Source of the DNA: Candidatus Binatia bacterium | Lineage (GTDB): Bacteria > Desulfobacterota > Binatia > HRBIN30 | NCBI GenBank assembly: GCA_038245295.1 | Contig: JBBRSP010000003.1 | Span: 64,001 to 128,000, forward strand | Length of the DNA: 64,000 nt | Direction of reading: 5' to 3' | In this document: one piece after another, positions 1 through 46,599 of the stretch | Numbering within the stretch: the stretch's first letter is position 1 | Layout of the letters: each line of letters opens with the position of its first letter | Made by a program: the position numbers and the translations under genes | The notes under the pieces: generated by a model | Told to the model about the DNA's origin: nothing | Database searches by the model: none | What the model saw: the letters and a program-made list of their open reading frames with translations, nothing else

Positions 1-531
1 CAGGCTGAAGGCGGCGCTGTAGTCCGCGGTTGTGTCTACCTCGACACCGTTGAGCCGCATGGTGCCATTCGAGATGATTCCCGGTGGTATGGCGACGTTC
101 CAACGGCCGGCGCGGCGACTCGTATCGAGTGCTACGGGGAACTTGCCCAACGACAGTTGGTGCGTGCGCCAAGATCCGTCGCGACGATGTGCGAGAAAGA
201 CGAGCGCGGTTTCGCCGGCTTCGTATTGCGGCGCGCCGTCGATGACCTCTGTGATATCGGCAAGCTCGCCGCCGTCTTCGACGAGCTCGATGTCCGTGTC
301 GGGCAAGATCCCTGTCAGGACCTCGTCGACGTGTAAGCCAACGTGGCGTTCGATATGGCCGTCGGCGCGTAAGCGCGGCGTGACCCGCGAGACAGTTGCT
401 CGGACGACCACCTCGGCGCCGGCGGTGAGGTCATCAACGCTCATCGGCACGATGGTCGTTGCCACCGCTGCCTGGGCGCAAGCAACGAGGAGGAGGAGAA
501 TCCAGCCGCGAGGGTTTCCCGGGATCAGCAC
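1..531 (-). CDS. Secreted protein, N-terminal part (runs off the window start); prodomain-like N-terminus seen in secreted metalloprotease/matrixin-type proteins
   Basis: Hand translation of the minus strand from GTG at 531: VLIPGNPRGWILLLLVACAQAAVATTIVPMSVDDLTAGAEVVVRATV...EDGGELADITEVIDGAPQYEAGETALVFL... Open to position 1, with a signal peptide. Not in the ORF track; start approximate. Confidence 0.7.
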   Translation of the reverse strand, partial: MLIPGNPRGWILLLLVACAQAAVATTIVPMSVDDLTAGAEVVVRATVSRVTPRLRADGHIERHVGLHVDEVLTGILPDTDIELVEDGGELADITEVIDGAPQYEAGETALVFLAHRRDGSWRTHQLSLGKFPVALDTSRRAGRWNVAIPPGIISNGTMRLNGVEVDTTADYSAAFSL

Positions 532-38281: not shown

Positions 38282-39634
38282 CTACGGCGCCAGCGTCGCG
38301 CCGACTTCCGTCAGCGCATGGTCGAGCGCCGTCACGATGGTATCGATTTCTCGCTCCTTGATGATCAACGGCGGGCACAGCGCGATGGTGTCGACACTGG
38401 CGCGCACGATGACGCCCTGCGCCAGGGTGGCGGCGCGGATGCGCAGCGGGATGTTCCATTCTGGCGGCAACGGTTCCTTGCTCTGCTTGTCGCGCACGAA
38501 CTCGAGTGCGGCCATCAGGCCGGCGGCGCGCACCTCGCCGACGATCGGGTGTCGCTCAAGGGTACGCAGTTTCTTGGCAAAGTAGGGCGCCAGACGGCGC
38601 GTCCGCTGCACCAGCTTTTCCTTTTCTATGATGTCTAGATTCGCCAATCCTGCCGCACAGACGACCGGGTGACCCGAATACGTAAAGCCGTGGTACAAAG
38701 AAAAGTCCGGCCCGGCATCGACCATTGTCTGGTAGATATCCTCCTTCATGAGTACGCCGCCGAGCGGCAGATAGCCGCTGGTCACGCTCTTGGCGAAGGA
38801 GATCATGTCGGGAACGGCCTTCCAGCGCTGTATGCCGAAGTTGTGCCCGAGACGGCCAAAGCCGGTGATTACCTCATCGGCGATCATCAAGACATTGTAT
38901 TTGTCGCAGATGGCGCGGATGCGCTCGAAATACCCGGGTGGCGGAACGATGACGCCGCCCACACCTTGCACCGGTTCGGCAATGAACGCACCGACGGTGT
39001 CGGGACCCTCCTCGAGGATGATGCGCTCGAGCTCGTCGGCACAGGCCAAGGCGCATCCGGGGTACGTCAGCTTGAGCTCACAGCGGTAACAAAACGGTCG
39101 CGCCATGCGCAGAACCCCTGGCATCATCGGCTCGTAGTACTTGTGGAAGTAGGGCAGGCCGGTGAGACTTGCCGAGCCGGTCGACGACCCGTGGTAGGCA
39201 CGTGTCAGCGCCACCATCTTTACCTTGTCGGCTTTTCCCTTGAGTCGCCAATACAACCGCATGAAGCGGATGACGCTTTCATTCGCCTCGGAACCGCCGG
39301 ATGTGAAGGAGACGCGGGTCAGCCCCTTGGGCGCCATCTTGACGATGCGCGTCGCCAATTCCTCGGCCGCCGGAGAGGAGAAGCCGAGGAGAGTCGGAAC
39401 AAATTCGAGGGCCCGTATCTGGCGCGCCGCGGCCGCGGCGATCGTCGGTCGGCCGTGGCCGACAGCAACGTTCCAGAGCGATGCCAGGCCGTCGATATAT
39501 CTATTTCCCTCGTCGTCCCACACGTAGATGCCACGACCCTTCACCAAACGAGTCGTGCCGTTGGCGGCGATCGTCGCCGGCGAGGCAAAGCCGCAAATCA
39601 AGTTCTTCGGGGCGCGACGACGTGGTTTCGGCAT
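38282..39634 (-). CDS. Class III PLP-dependent aminotransferase
   Basis: SGGSEAN, AYHG, EPVQGVGG, DEVITGFGR, AKSVTSGYLPLG. Confidence 0.94.
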   Translation of the reverse strand: MPKPRRRAPKNLICGFASPATIAANGTTRLVKGRGIYVWDDEGNRYIDGLASLWNVAVGHGRPTIAAAAARQIRALEFVPTLLGFSSPAAEELATRIVKMAPKGLTRVSFTSGGSEANESVIRFMRLYWRLKGKADKVKMVALTRAYHGSSTGSASLTGLPYFHKYYEPMMPGVLRMARPFCYRCELKLTYPGCALACADELERIILEEGPDTVGAFIAEPVQGVGGVIVPPPGYFERIRAICDKYNVLMIADEVITGFGRLGHNFGIQRWKAVPDMISFAKSVTSGYLPLGGVLMKEDIYQTMVDAGPDFSLYHGFTYSGHPVVCAAGLANLDIIEKEKLVQRTRRLAPYFAKKLRTLERHPIVGEVRAAGLMAALEFVRDKQSKEPLPPEWNIPLRIRAATLAQGVIVRASVDTIALCPPLIIKEREIDTIVTALDHALTEVGATLAP

Positions 39635-39807
39635 TTCCAGGCTCCCTCCTGCGGCATAGACCTATAGAGTATGGACCGGCATCAAAGGAAGTCGCCAAAT
39701 CCAATACGCTGCGCCGGACGTAGTTTGGATCGAAGTGGTAAGACCAGAGTCGCTTCACGGCGGCGAGAAGGTTACACGGGAGACACGTTGTGGTAGGCGC
39801 CAACTGG

Positions 39808-40227
39808 ATGAGAAAGCGAAGCATCATGCCCAGGCTGGCCTCCGTGGTCATGCTGGCTGCCTTCGCGTTCCAGGCGGGAACGCCACGTGTCGCCGTTCTG
39901 TTTCACGAACATGCCGGCGGTGAGCACGCTCACGTACACACCAGCGACATCGACGCCCTCATCAACGAATTCGCTACCCCGCCGCAGATCCGTGCGCGCA
40001 TCGCCCATCGCGCCGCCAGAGGCCTTGCCCTCGCGGTCGAACATCACAGTGGCCTGCACGCGCACTGGCAACAAGCCTTTCACGGGATCGATCGCCCATC
40101 CGATCCTCCGGCGCTCGCCGTTGCTGGCCTTGCCAGATCCCTCGGCCGCGCGCCGGGCGCTGCCGCCCTTCGAGGCAGTACGCTCGTCCCCCAGGTCCGC
40201 GGCCCGCCCCTCCCCGCCTGCGTCTAG
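39808..40227 (+). CDS. His-rich secreted leader protein with C-terminal RGPP ribosome-arrest motif (CruR/DUF2946-like architecture)
   Basis: 139 aa; N-terminal signal/TM segment, FHEHAGGEHAHVH and EHHSGLHAHW, ends PQVRGPPLPACV; 79 nt upstream of the TonB-dependent receptor. Confidence 0.72.
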   Translation: MRKRSIMPRLASVVMLAAFAFQAGTPRVAVLFHEHAGGEHAHVHTSDIDALINEFATPPQIRARIAHRAARGLALAVEHHSGLHAHWQQAFHGIDRPSDPPALAVAGLARSLGRAPGAAALRGSTLVPQVRGPPLPACV

Positions 40228-40306
40228 AACATACTACCAAAGCAGGAACGGGGACCGGGTTGTCGGTTTCGCAGCACCGCGCCCCGGATGTTCATGGAGG
40301 GAGCGG

Positions 40307-42571
40307 ATGAAACGCATGACTATGGCGCTCGGCGTCGCGACTGTAGCGGTGTGCCTGGGCGCGCCGGCATGGGCACACGACCCGGACAACGGCGACCAGA
40401 CCGTTGCCGGGGCAACGCATGAGACCAAGCTCGACGAGGTTGTCATCGAAGCCAAGAAGCCGGTGTCGGCGGCCTCGTCCGACGAGGTGCGGGCGCGCGA
40501 CTACGAGCTACGCCCGCACGATACGACGCAAGAGATTCTTAATAACCTTCCTGGCGTTGTCGTGGCGCAACACCAGGGCGGCGGCAAAGCGACGCAGTAC
40601 CTCGTGCGCGGATTCGACGCTGACCACGGCACCGACTTCGCCGTCTCCGTCGACGGGCTGCCGGTCAACCTGCCGACACACGCGCACGGCCAGGGGTATG
40701 CCGATTTGAACTTCGTCATCCCGGAGACCATCGAGCGCTTGCAGCTGCGCAAAGGTCCGTACTTTGCCGACCTGGGTGATTTCGCCAATGCCGGTGCCCT
40801 CAACATGGTGACGCGGGATGAGGTGCCGGAGAACTTCGGACGCGCCGAAGGCGGTTCGTTCGGTACACAGCGCTACGTCGCCGCGGTTTCGCCGAAGCTC
40901 AGTTGGACGAAGAACTTGACCGCGGCGCAGGCGTATTTTTCGGACGGACCATTCGTCAATCCGCAACACTACGCGCGCTACAATTTCTTCACAAAGTTTA
41001 CGATCGATTCGTTGCCCGACTCGAAGTTGTCGCTGACGGCAAGTGTGTATCAGGGTGACTGGGACGGTTCGGGCGAAATCCCGCTGCGGGTCGTGCAAGA
41101 CGGCCGCTTGCAGTTGGATCCGGCCGGGACTCCCAATCCGCGAAGCCGCTCGTTCACGCGCTTCGACTCGATCGATCCCACCGAAGGTGGCTCAAGTGAT
41201 CGCGAGAACCTCAATCTTCAATATAACTATACGCCCAGCGCCCGCGACGACTGGTCGTTCCAACTCTACGGCTCGCGCTATAAGCTGCAGCTGTTTAGTG
41301 ATTTCACCTTCTTCAAGGACACGGGGTTGCGATTCAAAGATGCCAACGGCAACTACATCCCCGGCGACGGCATCGAGCAGAACGACTCGCGTCTGTTGTA
41401 CGGTGGGAAGGCCAAGTACACGCGAAACTGGGGCCTCAGCGATCTGCCCGGTCCGGTCCACGACATCGCGATGCAGACAGAGGTCGGTGTTGAAACACGC
41501 AACGACATCATCGACGTCGCGTTGCACCGCCAACTGCGCCGCCAAAGGTTCTTCACGGTGAACGATGTGGCCGTCGAAGAGCACACGTTCAGCGGTTTTT
41601 TGCAGCAGCAGGTATTCCTTACCGACTGGTTGCGGATTGAGGGTGGGTTACGCGGCGACGTCTTCCTCTTCGACGGCAGCAATCGGCTGCCGCAACAAGG
41701 CAACGACCCGAACTTCGACGCTGTGTACGTTGCCGGGAACTCGACCAACTCGATTGTCAGCCCGAAGGCGAGCATCATCTTGACGCCTCTCAACGACACC
41801 GACGTCTACCTGAACTACGGCAACGGTTTTCATTCGAACGACGCGCGCAATGTCCTGTTGGCCAAAGCCAACCCGCAACTGGCCGGAAATGCGACCTCGG
41901 CGTTGGCACGCTCCACCGGCTACGAGCTCGGCGCACGGACCCGCCAGTTCGGCAAACTCGACGTCGCGGCGGCCTTGTGGCTGCTCGATCTGCAAAGTGA
42001 GTTGGTGTTCTCCGGTGACGGTGGCAACCAGGAAACGGCGGCCGGAGGTAGCTTTCAGCCGAGCGGCCCAACCCGGCGCTGGGGCGTCGACTTCGAAACG
42101 CGTTACGAGCTGACCAGTTGGTTGTTCGCCGACTACGACTTGTCGTGGTCTGATCCGCGCTTTCGGAACACCGGCGAGGCCGTGCCGTTGGCCCCAACGC
42201 TGTTGATGAACGGTGGTTTGACGGCCGAGTGGGCGAATGGCTTCTCGGCTGGCTTGCGTGGGCGGTACCTGGGGGATCGGCCCGCCATCGAGGATCGCAG
42301 CCTGACGGCGCGAGGTTATTTCCTGTTGGACCTGTTGGGCAAATACCGTTGGCGCAATATCGAAGTGTCGTTGGTGCTGCTCAATCTGACCGACACGGAC
42401 TGGCGTGAGGCGCAGTTTGCCGACACGACCTGTGTCTTGGGGGAAGTGGGGAAGGGGAACTGCGCCGCCAACCCCGGCAAACAGGGCAGCCAGGGCGATC
42501 CACCGGACAGCATCCATTTCACTCCGGGTAATCCGTTCAACGTGCGCGGCGGCGTCAGTGTCTACTTCTAG
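40307..42571 (+). CDS. TonB-dependent outer-membrane receptor
   Basis: GGAGG RBS, signal peptide, TonB box LDEVVIEA, plug QHQGGGKATQYLVRGFDADHGTD and PTHAHGQGYAD, C-terminal VSVYF. Confidence 0.93.
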   Translation: MKRMTMALGVATVAVCLGAPAWAHDPDNGDQTVAGATHETKLDEVVIEAKKPVSAASSDEVRARDYELRPHDTTQEILNNLPGVVVAQHQGGGKATQYLVRGFDADHGTDFAVSVDGLPVNLPTHAHGQGYADLNFVIPETIERLQLRKGPYFADLGDFANAGALNMVTRDEVPENFGRAEGGSFGTQRYVAAVSPKLSWTKNLTAAQAYFSDGPFVNPQHYARYNFFTKFTIDSLPDSKLSLTASVYQGDWDGSGEIPLRVVQDGRLQLDPAGTPNPRSRSFTRFDSIDPTEGGSSDRENLNLQYNYTPSARDDWSFQLYGSRYKLQLFSDFTFFKDTGLRFKDANGNYIPGDGIEQNDSRLLYGGKAKYTRNWGLSDLPGPVHDIAMQTEVGVETRNDIIDVALHRQLRRQRFFTVNDVAVEEHTFSGFLQQQVFLTDWLRIEGGLRGDVFLFDGSNRLPQQGNDPNFDAVYVAGNSTNSIVSPKASIILTPLNDTDVYLNYGNGFHSNDARNVLLAKANPQLAGNATSALARSTGYELGARTRQFGKLDVAAALWLLDLQSELVFSGDGGNQETAAGGSFQPSGPTRRWGVDFETRYELTSWLFADYDLSWSDPRFRNTGEAVPLAPTLLMNGGLTAEWANGFSAGLRGRYLGDRPAIEDRSLTARGYFLLDLLGKYRWRNIEVSLVLLNLTDTDWREAQFADTTCVLGEVGKGNCAANPGKQGSQGDPPDSIHFTPGNPFNVRGGVSVYF

Positions 42572-42575
42572 GCCG

Positions 42576-43334
42576 ATGCCCCAGCAACTGTCCTCAACGA
42601 CCCGCTCGCCCGCTCTCGCTCCTGTGCGAGCGCGGGCGACGGCGGCTTCCGTCGCACTCCATCTCGTCTTGCTCGGGCTGGCATTTCTGTTGGGGCGGCA
42701 GTCGACCACACCACCGCCGATTCAGATTCGGTTGGTGTACGTCGAGCCCAAGGTGATCGATGCCCCAGCCCCCGCGCCGCCGCCGCCGGCTGCGGAACCG
42801 GCCCAAGCCGCACCGATTGAGGTGCCGCAGACGATGCCCCACAGGGCAGCCGAGAAGCCGATCGATCCGCCGCAACGCAAACATGTGATCGCCGCCAAGA
42901 AGCCGCCGGCAGCGCAGCAGGCGTCGCCACCGGCGCCGGATGCCGCTGCTTCAGATGCAGCCGTTGGTGGTCTCGAGGGTGGCGTGGTCGGTGGGGAAGT
43001 CGGCGGCAAAGAGGGCGGCCGAATTGGTGGCCAAGGTGATGCGCCTGTGCGTGAGGATCAGGTGGCACATCCGCCGACGGTCGTGTCGCGCGTCGTGCCG
43101 ACCTATCCCGCCATGGCACGGGCCCGCGGCATCGAAGGGCGTGTTCTGTTGCGAGCCATCGTTGATCGTGACGGCCATGTAGAACCGGCGGTGGAGGTCA
43201 TCGAATCGATGGCGCCGTTCGATGTCCCGGCAGTCGATGCCCTGCGCCAGTGGCACTTTCACCCGGGAAGCGACGCCGACGGAAAGACGGTCCGCGTGGT
43301 CGTCGAGGTGCCGATGCGTTTTCAGTTACGTTGA
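42576..43334 (+). CDS. tonB: Energy transducer TonB
   Basis: TM motif SVALH, Pro-rich linker, C-terminal PTYPAMARARGIEGRVLL...QWHFHP. Confidence 0.9.
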   Translation: MPQQLSSTTRSPALAPVRARATAASVALHLVLLGLAFLLGRQSTTPPPIQIRLVYVEPKVIDAPAPAPPPPAAEPAQAAPIEVPQTMPHRAAEKPIDPPQRKHVIAAKKPPAAQQASPPAPDAAASDAAVGGLEGGVVGGEVGGKEGGRIGGQGDAPVREDQVAHPPTVVSRVVPTYPAMARARGIEGRVLLRAIVDRDGHVEPAVEVIESMAPFDVPAVDALRQWHFHPGSDADGKTVRVVVEVPMRFQLR

Positions 43335-43387: not shown

Positions 43388-43690
43388 TCAGCCAAGCACG
43401 GCGCGGAATTGCCGGAGCAGCTCGTGGCGCAACTGTTCGGGCACATCGTCGTCGGTGAGTTTGGCCAGGTCACTGCGGTACCAGTGACAATCCTTGACGT
43501 AGAAATAGGAAAACACACTGTCGTAGGCGACCGTCGCGGTGAGAGCGTAGTCGCCGGCCCGCATCGCCAGCACGCGTTTGTCCGAGGCGATGACAAAACG
43601 CTTGTCGTGCATGGCGCGAAACAGGTTCAGTCGTAAACCCGTGTAGCGACGCAAACACGTCCATCTCGCTTCAAGCGAGTGCTGGCTCAT
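43388..43690 (-). CDS. Hypothetical protein (100 aa)
   Basis: ORF fills the gap between the REP and tldD; no recognisable motif. Confidence 0.45.
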   Translation of the reverse strand: MSQHSLEARWTCLRRYTGLRLNLFRAMHDKRFVIASDKRVLAMRAGDYALTATVAYDSVFSYFYVKDCHWYRSDLAKLTDDDVPEQLRHELLRQFRAVLG

Positions 43691-43785
43691 CGAGCCGCTC
43701 CATTGCGCGCTTCAAACACTCTATGTGGCTCCGTGTAGATCCGTATGGTAGTCAGAAAAAAAACCTGAGATCAAGGAACTTCTCA

Positions 43786-45240
43786 ATGCCGACCCCCCCG
43801 ACCACTGTCGATCCCGTCCGCTTCTTTTTGGAGCGCTTCGGGCTATCGCACAACCAACTCGAAAATACCGTCGCCTCGGCCATCGCCCGCCGCGCTGACT
43901 ACGCTGATCTCTACTTCGAATTCCGTACATTACAAAGTCTCAGCTTGGAAGATGGAATCGTCAAGAGCGCCGGACAGCACGTGGCGCAGGGCGCCGGCGT
44001 GCGCGTCGTCGCCGGCGACAAGACCGGTTACGCGCACTCCGACGACGTTAGCATTGAGAGTCTGCAGTTGGCCACGCGGACGGCTCAAGCGATCGCCCAG
44101 CAGTCGAGTGATCCGCGTTCGGTGGCGGTTCGCCCGATGGTCGCGGCGCACGATCTCTACACCCTGGCGCGGTCGCCGTTCGACATCCGGCTGGCCGACA
44201 AGGTCGACCTTCTCAACCGCATCGATATCGCGGCGCGGCGTCACGACTCGCGCATCAAGAACGTGATGGCCTCGGTGGCGGTCGAAGAAAAGTACATCGT
44301 CATCGTAGGGTCGACCGGCTTTATCATCGGCGACGTACAACCTCTCGTACGCCTCAATGTCACCTGCATCGCCGAGGAGAATGGCCAGCGCCAACAAGGC
44401 ACCTATGGCGGCGGCGGTCGGGTAGAATTCGAGTTTCTCCTGCAAGAGGACCGCTGGCTGCGCTACACGCGTACCGCTGCAGACCATGCCCTGCGCAACT
44501 TGAAAGCGGTGGATGCCCCAGCGGGATCGATGACCGTCGTGCTGGGCCCGGGTTGGCCCGGCGTGCTGTTACACGAGGCCGTTGGTCACGGACTGGAAGG
44601 CGACTTCAATCGCAAGCAGATCTCGGCGTTCTCGGGCCTGATCGGCAAACAGGTGGCGTCGGAGTTGGTGAGTGTCGTCGACGACGGGACGATGCCGAAT
44701 CGCCGCGGTTCGTTGAACGTCGACGACGAAGGCACACCGACCAGCCGCACGGTGCTCATCGAGAAGGGTATCCTGCGCGGTTACCTGCAGGACCGCATGA
44801 ACGGGCGATTGTCGGGAATGCCGCTCACAGGAAATGGCCGGCGCGAGAGTTTTGCGCACATGCCGATGCCGCGCATGACGAACACGTTCATGTTGGCCGG
44901 CGAGTCGACGCACGACGATATCATTCGGTCGGTCGACCGCGGCTTGTACGCCGCCTACTTCGGCGGCGGCCAGGTCGACATCACCAGCGGCAAGTTCGTC
45001 TTCTCGGCGAGCGAGGCCTATCTGATCGAGGGTGGTAAACTGACGCGTCCCGTGAAGGGTGCAACCTTGATCGGTAGCGGCCCCGAAGCGCTCAAGCGTG
45101 TCTCTATGGTGGGTAACGATCTTGAGCTCGACGAAGGCATCGGCACTTGCGGCAAGGACGGCCAATCGGTGCCCGTTGGGGTCGGTATGCCGACGGTGCG
45201 AATCGACGGCATGACCGTCGGTGGAACACAGGCGAGCTGA
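43786..45240 (+). CDS. tldD: Metalloprotease TldD
   Basis: ADLYFE, GPGWPGVLLHEAVGHGLEGDFNRK, TGNGRRES, CGKDGQSVPVGVG. Confidence 0.96.
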   Translation: MPTPPTTVDPVRFFLERFGLSHNQLENTVASAIARRADYADLYFEFRTLQSLSLEDGIVKSAGQHVAQGAGVRVVAGDKTGYAHSDDVSIESLQLATRTAQAIAQQSSDPRSVAVRPMVAAHDLYTLARSPFDIRLADKVDLLNRIDIAARRHDSRIKNVMASVAVEEKYIVIVGSTGFIIGDVQPLVRLNVTCIAEENGQRQQGTYGGGGRVEFEFLLQEDRWLRYTRTAADHALRNLKAVDAPAGSMTVVLGPGWPGVLLHEAVGHGLEGDFNRKQISAFSGLIGKQVASELVSVVDDGTMPNRRGSLNVDDEGTPTSRTVLIEKGILRGYLQDRMNGRLSGMPLTGNGRRESFAHMPMPRMTNTFMLAGESTHDDIIRSVDRGLYAAYFGGGQVDITSGKFVFSASEAYLIEGGKLTRPVKGATLIGSGPEALKRVSMVGNDLELDEGIGTCGKDGQSVPVGVGMPTVRIDGMTVGGTQAS

Positions 45241-45243
45241 GCT

Positions 45244-46599
45244 ATGGGACTCGACATGCAACTCGAAGACGTGGCGCAGCAGCTTCTGGCGGCGGCCAAG
45301 AGTGCTGGAGCAACGGCCGCCGACGTCGTCGTCGCCGAAGGCGACTCGCTCGAAACGGGGGTCCGCCTCGGCGAGATTGAGAAGCTCAAACAGTCGCGCC
45401 AGAAACATCTTGGTTTGCGCGTGTTCGTCGGTGACCGAAGCGCCGTGACCTCGTCGTCTGATTTCTCGGCCGCTGCGATTCGTCAACTCGCCGTCGATAC
45501 CTGTGAGCTGGCAAAGGTGATCGCGGCCGACCCATTTGGTGGGCTCCCGGAGGCGTCCGACCTGGCCCAATCGGTGCCAGATCTCGATCTCTACGACCCA
45601 GCCGTCGCCGAGTTCACGGCCGAGGCGGCCATCGAGCTGGCCAAGGAAGCCGAAGCGGCGGCGCTCGGAGCCGATCCGCGTATCACCAATTCCGAGGGTG
45701 CCGAGTGTGGCGCGTCGACGTCGCGTGTTTTGTATGCCTCGTCGCTCGGCTTCTTGGGCAGCTATCGCGACTCGGGTGTATCCCTGTCGACCGTACCGAT
45801 CGCCTCCGAGAACGGTTCGATGCAGCGCGACTACTGGTACACCGCGCAACGCCGCCTTTCGGCGCTCGAGGCGCCCGGGGACGTTGGTCGCAAGGCGGCG
45901 GCCCGGGCTTTGCGGCGCCTCAACGGCAAGCAGGTCAAAACGTGCGCGGTACCGGTCGTATTCGATCCGGACGTTGCCGCAAGCCTGATCCGTCACCTCG
46001 CGGGAGCGGTCTCGGGATATTCTCTCTATAAGGGGAGCTCGTTCTTGATCGGTAAACTCGGCCAACGCATCGCGCCGGAGTTTGTGACGATCTTCGACGA
46101 TGGCACCCTGGTCGGGCGCCTGGGCTCGAAGCCGTTCGATGCCGAAGGTTTGGCGACCCGCCGCAATGTTGTGGTCGAGAAGGGTGTCTTGAAGAGTTAC
46201 CTGTTCGACACCTATTCGGCACGCAAGCTCAACAGCCGCAGCACCGGCAATGCGGCGCGCTCGGTTGGTTCGCCGCCGATGGTGTCGACGACCAACTTCA
46301 TTCTCGAAGCCGGTACTTCAACGCCGCAAGAGATCATCGCTTCGGTGCGTGACGGGCTCTATGTGACCGAGCTCATCGGTATGGGCGTCAACGGGACCAC
46401 CGGTGACTACTCGCGTGGTGCCGTCGGCTTGTGGATTGAGAACGGCCAGCTGGCGTATCCGGTGGAAGAGATCACCATTGCCGGGAACCTGCTGGAGATG
46501 TACCAGCGCCTCGAGATGATCGGCAACGATCTCGACTATCGTCATTCGGTTTGTGCGCCGACGCTCAAGATCGCCAAAATGACCGTTGCGGGAAGCTGA
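45244..46599 (+). CDS. pmbA: TldE/PmbA metalloprotease partner
   Basis: MQRDYWY, FDAEG, STGNA, TGDYSRGA, EITIAGNL; follows tldD. Confidence 0.94.
   Translation: MGLDMQLEDVAQQLLAAAKSAGATAADVVVAEGDSLETGVRLGEIEKLKQSRQKHLGLRVFVGDRSAVTSSSDFSAAAIRQLAVDTCELAKVIAADPFGGLPEASDLAQSVPDLDLYDPAVAEFTAEAAIELAKEAEAAALGADPRITNSEGAECGASTSRVLYASSLGFLGSYRDSGVSLSTVPIASENGSMQRDYWYTAQRRLSALEAPGDVGRKAAARALRRLNGKQVKTCAVPVVFDPDVAASLIRHLAGAVSGYSLYKGSSFLIGKLGQRIAPEFVTIFDDGTLVGRLGSKPFDAEGLATRRNVVVEKGVLKSYLFDTYSARKLNSRSTGNAARSVGSPPMVSTTNFILEAGTSTPQEIIASVRDGLYVTELIGMGVNGTTGDYSRGAVGLWIENGQLAYPVEEITIAGNLLEMYQRLEMIGNDLDYRHSVCAPTLKIAKMTVAGS

Follow-up and report, generated by a model that had tools for sequence, protein, structure and literature searches.

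The window, a stretch of 64,000 nucleotides from a Candidatus Binatia genome, carries a leader open reading frame, a gene for a TonB-dependent receptor and a gene for a TonB protein in a row, the last of these beginning 4 bases past the receptor stop. The features of this region, all on the plus strand, are as follows (P, predicted pairing probability):

39790..40227, plus strand: leader ORF, 145 aa from the GTG at 39790; the ATGs at 39808 and 39826 are alternative starts
39904..39939, plus strand: first His cluster, H39-x-H41-AGG-x-H46-x-H48-x-H50
39920..40283, plus strand: C-over-G stretch, possible Rho-utilisation region (C 0.37-0.47, G 0.22-0.33 in 78-base windows)
40057..40065, plus strand: second His motif, H90-x-H92, 47 and 45 residues ahead of the RGPP Arg
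40198..40209, plus strand: RGPP codons; putative stall with P site 40204-06 and A site 40207-09, the register being that of toeprints of other RAPP/RGPP peptides
40204..40213, plus strand: predicted anti-Shine-Dalgarno strand (Pro-Pro-Leu codons), pairing with 40296-40306 (P 0.75-0.99)
40211..40254, plus strand: predicted local hairpin, 40217-21:40242-46 in the free fold, with 40211-16:40249-54 added in shorter transcripts
40223..40232, plus strand: predicted alternative strand including GAACAT, pairing with 40288-40298 only with the stall site blocked and re-covering the 5' part of the Shine-Dalgarno sequence (SD)
40249..40286, plus strand: predicted hairpin between the two genes with CGGGG:CCCCG as its closing stem, in the free and the stalled fold alike (P 0.93-1.00)
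40296..40306, plus strand: receptor ribosome-binding region, SD core GGAGG at 40296-40300, 6 bases 5' of the ATG
40307..42571, plus strand: TonB-dependent receptor, 754 aa, signal peptide, His-bearing plug (Pfam Plug, E 2e-15)
42576..43334, plus strand: TonB protein, ATG start (TonB_C, E 5.7e-16)

The receptor-tonB unit is followed by tldD-pmbA (43723-46599), and between tonB and tldD lies a minus-strand ORF of 100 aa (43388-43690) without a Pfam match. In five same-family relatives (L025, L028-L031) tldD also comes after the receptor, which is probably synteny only.

The leader peptide and its homologues

The leader has a basic N-terminus, a hydrophobic helix at residues 13-30, two His clusters and the C-terminal sequence RGPPLPACV*, whose codons occupy 40198-40227 with the TAG at 40225-27. 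An N-terminal export signal or membrane helix is predicted from the basic N-terminus and the helix, the latter also present in an AlphaFold model (pTM 0.35) that contains a predicted strand at residues 89-93. Pfam and NCBIfam assign the leader to no family, a Foldseek search with the model gave zero matches at E 0.001, and in the ESM Atlas it is similar to unnamed clusters (0.95-0.96; one set DUF6769, 35%). No match of the window leader to DUF2946 (PF11162) rises above the cut-off, and a single one of 55 family members matches at E 0.22, so that by Pfam membership it is outside DUF2946. The CxxC motif occurs in none of 62 leader sequences, as trimmed, and the leader family is Cys-free and His-only. 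A genome-wide search with PF11162 found one locus, not the window's leader: a second RxPP leader on the minus strand of another contig of the same genome (G000:C4:132115-132450; L139, L136), over the cut-off at E 7.7e-5. That leader has a CxxC 49 residues before RAPP and a strong footprint:RBS duplex of -24.8, and precedes a 518-aa secreted protein without a clear Pfam family.

Receptor relatives occur in 146 of the 401 genomes of the class, the named neighbours being Candidatus Binatia; the tally counts three unpublished genomes, from none of which the analysed loci came. These loci number 128, with 18 and 30 taken from two homologue lists and 80 more hand-picked from the second list for N-terminal coverage; 126 include the receptor N-terminus, and 5 are duplicates. 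Receptor starts were picked by a script from SD strength and signal features, blind to the leader, and verified only by eye. Requiring an ORF that ends in RxPP and has at least 4 His, together with a picked receptor start, gave a set of 62 loci, alongside 45 without such a leader and 14 without a picked start. Among these 59 excluded loci, 4 distinct ones do carry leaders that the filters missed, and 2 lack upstream DNA.

The shared leader pattern is F..P...HxHAGGxHxHVH, a later HxH and then RxPP. In 55 aligned leaders H48 and H50 are invariant, while H39 and H41 are present in at least 90%. The arrest-motif endings of the 62 homologues, which were selected by RxPP, are RAPP (33), RGPP (23) and RSPP (6); the window leader has RGPP plus 5 residues. 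In 54 of the 62 the second motif stands at -46/-44 from the Arg, its first His lies at 45 or 47 in 3 more, and in the window leader it is at -47/-45. This spacing played no part in the selection of loci, which used RxPP and His content. Two loci have other endings: at L121 (G045) a His-rich leader ends in RDPP instead of RAPP/RGPP, with a distant receptor downstream, and at L010 a His-rich ORF before an Archangium receptor ends in ...PQGP* without RxPP, and is possibly decayed or has a different arrest motif.

The basic N-terminal stretch and hydrophobic helix, combined with RGPP as a strong, context-tolerant arrest motif (PMC12992588), would also suit a secretion monitor of the SecM/VemP type, where Sec pull on the N-terminal helix ends the arrest, slow export leads to receptor synthesis, and the His residues are secondary. 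This seems very improbable, as the fixed spacing is that from HxH to RxPP, whereas the first His cluster lies at a variable 87 to 170 residues from RxPP where measured, and as the gene downstream is not a sec gene but encodes a receptor of a kind with nickel-type neighbours.

Predicted RNA fold and the modelled stall

A first-pass annotation of this DNA had proposed that the RGPP codons form the outer strand of one long hairpin that hides the receptor SD, with two further helices nested inside, and that a stalled ribosome would cover that strand and free the SD. The six stretches it named are all in place, 40204-40213 being the Pro-Pro-Leu codons plus one base and the receptor ATG lying at 40307. 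Folding of 40190-40320 with and without a ribosome footprint predicts the SD to be paired, not open, in the free state. The outer helix (40204-13:40296-306; 10 bp, A40302 bulged) is dominant in the minimum-energy fold, with a pair probability of 0.75-0.78 in this 131-nt region and 0.94-0.99 in four larger ones, and it spans the entire SD-to-AUG spacer. The innermost helix, CGGGG:CCCCG (40249-53:40282-86), is likewise present (P 0.93-0.96). The middle helix, GAACAT:ATGTTC, is missing from the free fold (P 0.00 in 40150-40335), and the single long hairpin fails with it: the best structure with all three helices has -79.8 kcal/mol vs -84.3 for the free optimum, 4.5 kcal/mol worse. The predicted free fold is rather a three-way junction with CCUGC 40217-21 paired to GCAGG 40242-46, and in three 3'-truncated transcripts the local hairpin 40211-21:40242-54 beats the anti-SD helix.

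Taken by itself, the helix at this locus is only modestly beyond chance. The 131-nt fold has a z of -1.21, with 19 of 200 shuffles equally stable. As for the duplex of footprint and RBS (-21.2 kcal/mol), 0.9% of 4259 plus-strand windows, 4.8% of 2000 windows of the same genome centred on Pro-Pro and 17.5% of 200 synonymous recodings do equally well. A riboswitch or known structured RNA was rejected for lack of an Rfam match (0 matches in 39500-40500 at E up to 1), and searches for an intrinsic terminator and a sigma-70 promoter consensus found 0, about the level of shuffles.

When RAPP/RGPP peptides stall, the third residue of the motif is in the P site and the toeprint lies 15-17 bases onward (PMC7897499, PMC10987492). 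The same register placed on this locus gives a P site at 40204-06 and a leading edge near 40219-21. The whole anti-SD strand would then be under the ribosome, as first proposed; the model does not support a full freeing of the RBS, the SD being loosened and still partly paired. Keeping all bases up to 40222 unpaired lowers the energy needed to open 40294-40312 from 11.5-13.3 to 5.9-6.6 kcal/mol, and blocking 40190-40219 alone lowers it to 8.2-8.7 kcal/mol; for a narrow RBS region the gain amounts to about 4-6 kcal/mol. Against 350 strong-SD starts of the genome (background from crude gene calls, 3600 ORFs), the free site (12.4) ranks in the 82nd percentile, and with the stall the cost of 7.8-8.8 ranks in the 39th-53rd; 4.3% of the 350 genes show a drop of at least 4 with the equivalent stretch blocked. 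Over a wider region (-15..+12) there is hardly any gain: the cost is 10.4 in the free state, 13.5 ahead of the stall and 11.6 during it. In the stalled fold the first two G of GGAGG are unpaired with a probability of 0.01-0.13 and the last three bases with 0.31-0.82. The middle helix arises only in this state, where it and other alternatives re-pair the first two SD G; its alternative strand has P 0.00 free and 0.14-0.69 or 0.3-0.98 when blocked, varying with window and footprint edge. The model thus supports a stall that would move the site from closed to average accessibility, short of full exposure.

Cognate pairing of stall-site codons with the ribosome-binding region

Across homologues the intergenic regions diverge, falling into 56 clusters among the 62 loci, and the helix register shifts between loci; alignment-free swap tests were therefore used in place of column-wise covariation. 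Because Pro codons begin with CC and SDs are G-rich, each footprint was compared on its own versus other RBSs, using R-6..R+24 against -20..+3 with one locus per cluster. These swap tests reveal locus-specific complementarity of the stall-site codons to their own RBS.

Cognate duplexes average -18.75 vs -16.14±0.39 when permuted, a value reached by 0 of 20,000 permutations over the 56 clusters, while three flanking control windows gave p 0.064, 0.13 and 0.48. With permutation restricted to within families (null -16.98±0.36) the count is again 0 of 20,000, controls give p 0.21-0.55, and all seven groups of more than 2 members go in the same direction. In 42 of 56 clusters the real codons outdo their synonymous recodings (controls 29/56 and 28/56), and when nearest relatives are compared in 31 disjoint pairs, the footprint favours its own RBS in 24 (controls 13, 18 and 10). 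A two-way window scan over 55 clusters peaks at R+8..24 vs AUG-22..-6 (z -5.5); off-target cells reach down to z -3.4, so shared base composition adds a background signal. A perfect run of at least 7 pairs is seen for 17 of 55 cognate combinations vs 9.7% of non-cognate ones, and the cases include runs in which both strands differ between loci: UCCCGCUGC:GCAGCGGGA, CUCCUUUUU:AAAAAGGAG and UUUCGAGC:GCUCGAAA. The matching bases include U-rich and A-rich extensions past the Pro codons that track the bases 5' of each SD. These results are strong evidence that the stall-site codons are matched to their own locus's RBS across the leader family.

The match is looser at the level of single loci. Only 12 of 62 are in the best tenth of their own row of the pairing matrix, and full folds pair the SD mainly with the footprint in 26. 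Over the 62 loci the modelled stall lowers the median P(SD paired) from 0.82 to 0.70 and the median opening cost from 16.1 to 13.1, with a drop of at least 4 in 19. It might be asked, then, whether the helix is functional in many relatives and incidental or vestigial at the window locus, where CC-starting Pro codons face a G-rich SD. The frequencies found for recodings and Pro-Pro windows speak for this, as do a longest perfect run of 6 at the locus, the 28% of non-cognate RBSs that pair equally well with the window footprint, and the 36 of 62 homologues that fold otherwise. We give this explanation little chance, since the helix dominates the predicted folds of five windows and extends over the SD-to-AUG spacer, and the residual of the locus is -2.9, negative like the family mean.

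A second set consists of 15 CxxC leaders, drawn from the 30 best PF11162 loci in the class (L137-L166), with the CxxC 46-50 residues before RxPP. Here the cognate mean is -16.13 vs -14.14±0.70 (p 0.003; controls p 0.20-0.84) in a permutation across all families together.

A different origin of the pairing would be selection for C-rich RNA. In this explanation, modelled wholly on CruR, the stalled ribosome blocks Rho at a C-rich rut site, metal frees the stall, Rho terminates before the receptor, and the pairing of Pro codons with the SD is a by-product of rut selection. The mechanism was demonstrated for CruR with bicyclomycin and in vitro work (PMC9426467), and several properties of the present loci agree with it. 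At the window locus the leader and stall site are richer in C than in G, and 49-50 of 62 homologues show a C excess above 0.1 around their stall sites, the stretch ending about 30 bases past the Arg; an intrinsic terminator is absent; the intergenic regions from leader to receptor are long (median 104), as in cruR; and the excess of CCT at the first Pro (23 of 62 leaders vs 6-13% in background sets) yields YC-rich RNA too. Selection for C-richness, however, cannot yield a preference for the own over a relative's RBS, and the matches reach into the U-rich and A-rich extensions. We therefore regard this account, as the sole one, as unlikely.

The metal, known systems and a probable switch

The receptor itself says little about its ligand: comparison with solved structures gave plug-only matches (best BtuB, E 2e-8), and similarity in the ESM Atlas is generic only. 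The plugs contain DHGxD in 106 of 106 cases and H[AG]HGQG in 96 of 106. Gene context is more informative, as the receptor family adjoins nikR, NiCoT, urease and hydrogenase genes in relatives. NikR is a repressor of nickel uptake. A scan that covered 108 of 187 proposed neighbours found nikR as the immediate upstream neighbour at 10 receptors that lack a leader and at one locus that has one. Further nikR neighbours lie upstream at two loci and downstream at two, one of them at a receptor 68-69% identical to the window's; weak NicO matches lie upstream at three loci, and UreD and a urea transporter flank another. Of six plasmid receptor regions (31-35% identity), three of them chosen with hydrogenase plasmids in view, four have NiCoT, nikR or hyp genes and two are without. 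At one leader-bearing locus (L008/L043, G088) nikR, a His-rich leader and the receptor follow in a row on one strand, so that both regulators are present at one locus. In family f13 (L094, L095, L098, L099, L103, L116) six loci have a membrane gene of DUF475/TerC type upstream of the leader and in the same orientation, and DUF475 could be a metal-handling partner of these leaders.

With loci sorted by hand, NikR is found in 2 of 58 leader-bearing vs 19 of 46 leaderless genomes. Kinship enters these counts, in that a single family supplies 15 of the 19 NikR-bearing leaderless genomes and a second one accounts for 22 of the 27 that lack both leader and NikR; on a 100-column plug tree the leader and nikR labels need 4 changes, 3 of them forced by supported branches. 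Family f10 (L058-L077, L082, L105) is a tight clade of about 20 receptors that has lost the leader, in genomes without NikR and with varied upstream genes, and several of its loci share a short similar stretch ahead of the receptor start. The window's genome (96.6% complete) encodes a NiFe-hydrogenase large subunit and urease alpha, has a NicO match below the cut-off and gave zero matches to NikR; no nickel genes are adjacent to the window's locus. A loose palindrome resembling a NikR box occurs, in raw counts, upstream of the leaders in 10 of 62 loci without a common position, and is absent at the window locus. From the gene context the metal is most likely nickel, at somewhat better than even confidence, and otherwise cobalt or zinc.

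The first-pass annotation had cited secM-secA and mifM-yidC2 as precedents; closer ones are the metal-sensing leaders CruR and CutF and the RGPP leader of secDF2. CruR (Bp2923, DUF2946/PF11162) precedes crtA/bfrG in Bordetella pertussis (PMC9426467, PMC12914433). Its C90 and C93 precede R139 by 49 and 46 residues, regulation suffers when 5 residues are inserted, and its output has been assigned to Rho termination (PMC9426467). Like the window leader it has about 145 aa, an export signal and a metal motif at a fixed distance before a C-terminal RxPP, and like the window locus it has a long intergenic region, a C>G stretch and a TonB-dependent receptor downstream. The window leader differs in its two His clusters and in having neither CxxC nor a DUF2946 match, and its receptor is of another family, with nickel-type neighbours in relatives. 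An SD-masking helix, predicted at the window locus, is not described for CruR in the accessible text of the report (PMC9426467).

CutF precedes cutO in Rhodobacter capsulatus, where copper induces and the stall opens a stem-loop over the next SD (PMC9973294, bioRxiv 10.1101/2025.02.05.636593). It requires its own signal peptide, whereas that of CruR is dispensable (PMC9426467). CutF and, on prediction, the window locus combine an exported metal-motif leader with a helix over the SD of the following gene within reach of the stalled ribosome. CutF differs in its CxxxC, its EF-P-sensitive proline-rich motif, its oxidase target and a stem-loop that the available descriptions place in the intergenic region; neither CxxxC nor a copper-oxidase target is found at the window locus, with its His-only leader and receptor target. 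There the arrest codons would themselves serve as the anti-SD, at a distance of 90 bases from the SD, and the gene controlled would be that of an importer. Two CutF-like His-only clusters, 14 and 17, adjoin HupE/UreJ nickel-cobalt genes, and sensing of Ni or Co has been suggested for them (PMC9973294); next door to the window leader is a receptor instead.

At uDF_RQH_Enterobacterales, an RGPP leader ahead of secDF2, arrest exposes an SD hidden in a stem-loop, as stem mutations and purified translation show (PMC10987492). The secDF2 leader, ApdA/ApdP, SecM, MifM and VemP monitor export, lack a metal motif made of His and act on sec or yidC genes (PMC10987492, PMC7897499), whereas the genes downstream of the window leader are the receptor and tonB, not secA, secDF or yidC. 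RAPP/RGPP uORFs are small and signal-bearing and are enriched before TonB-dependent receptors across Gram-negative phyla; the motif by itself is sometimes insufficient for arrest (PMC12992588). As far as its accessible text goes, that survey assigns no mechanism to the downstream effect and does not mention a nickel family, and its main text does not contain 'stem-loop', 'Shine-Dalgarno' or 'secondary structure' (PMC12992588). In the open-access literature neither a nickel-sensing arrest leader nor the use of RxPP codons as an anti-SD was found; subscription papers and CutF Fig. S6, File S1 and EMBO J source data may hold the family.

The best explanation, which we consider probable, is a metal-sensing arrest-peptide switch of the CruR/CutF kind that governs initiation of receptor translation through occlusion of the SD. 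The His clusters with RGPP, the codon:SD pairing, its locus specificity and the fixed HxH spacing are drawn from sequence, predicted folds and homologues; stalling, the metal and the polarity are inferred. With no ribosome on the Pro-Pro-Leu codons, the helix would hold the receptor off. When the metal is scarce, the ribosome would stall at RGP/P and sit over 40190-40220, removing the anti-SD strand; the weaker structure left behind, open in part, would allow translation of the receptor and of the following tonB. When present, the metal would bridge the first His cluster and the HxH freshly out of the exit tunnel; given the tunnel dimensions, an HxH 45-47 residues from the peptidyl-transferase centre would be just past the tunnel and not yet periplasmic. 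Metal-driven folding would then pull the chain and release the arrest, the ribosome would end at the TAG at 40225-27, and the helix would re-form. Untranslated C-rich RNA may additionally be terminated by Rho; because blocked initiation exposes RNA to Rho, the two outputs may act together. By analogy, the locus would resemble CruR in its sensing and CutF or SecM in its output, with a conserved leader system.

The polarity, with metal releasing the arrest, was chosen because of the importer target and the CruR-like spacing. Under the opposite polarity, that of CutF, metal would cause or prolong the stall and the receptor would be metal-induced, for instance so that a metal complex is taken up only if present outside. 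CutF itself combines SD unmasking with induction by copper (PMC9973294), and the export signal would place the His clusters in the periplasm; the target here, on the other hand, is an importer that NikR, as a repressor of uptake, would repress in relatives, and the spacing fits CruR, whose arrest metal releases. Metal induction has a slim chance at best.

Returning to the switch released by metal, each of its components is already precedented: RGPP arrest, SD unmasking, metal-motif leaders before receptors, and His-only variants suspected of Ni/Co sensing. A 2025 survey of RAPP/RGPP leaders closes by asking whether and how arrest regulates downstream genes (PMC12992588), and for one large group the family test offers an answer that is concrete and open to mutation: codons at the stall site, together with the few unconstrained ones behind them, track their own RBS. 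Tentatively, a nickel-sensing nascent-peptide switch may replace NikR in most of the class, with the arrest codons doubling as the anti-SD. As this double use of RxPP codons extends to leaders of the CxxC/DUF2946-like kind (15 loci, p 0.003), SD occlusion may be a general, so far undescribed output of RxPP metal leaders beside or before Rho. If the metal is nickel, a peptide-based sensor would be added beside the protein repressors and riboswitches for nickel, and it would explain how uptake is tuned in genomes, the window's included, that have urease and NiFe hydrogenase without NikR.
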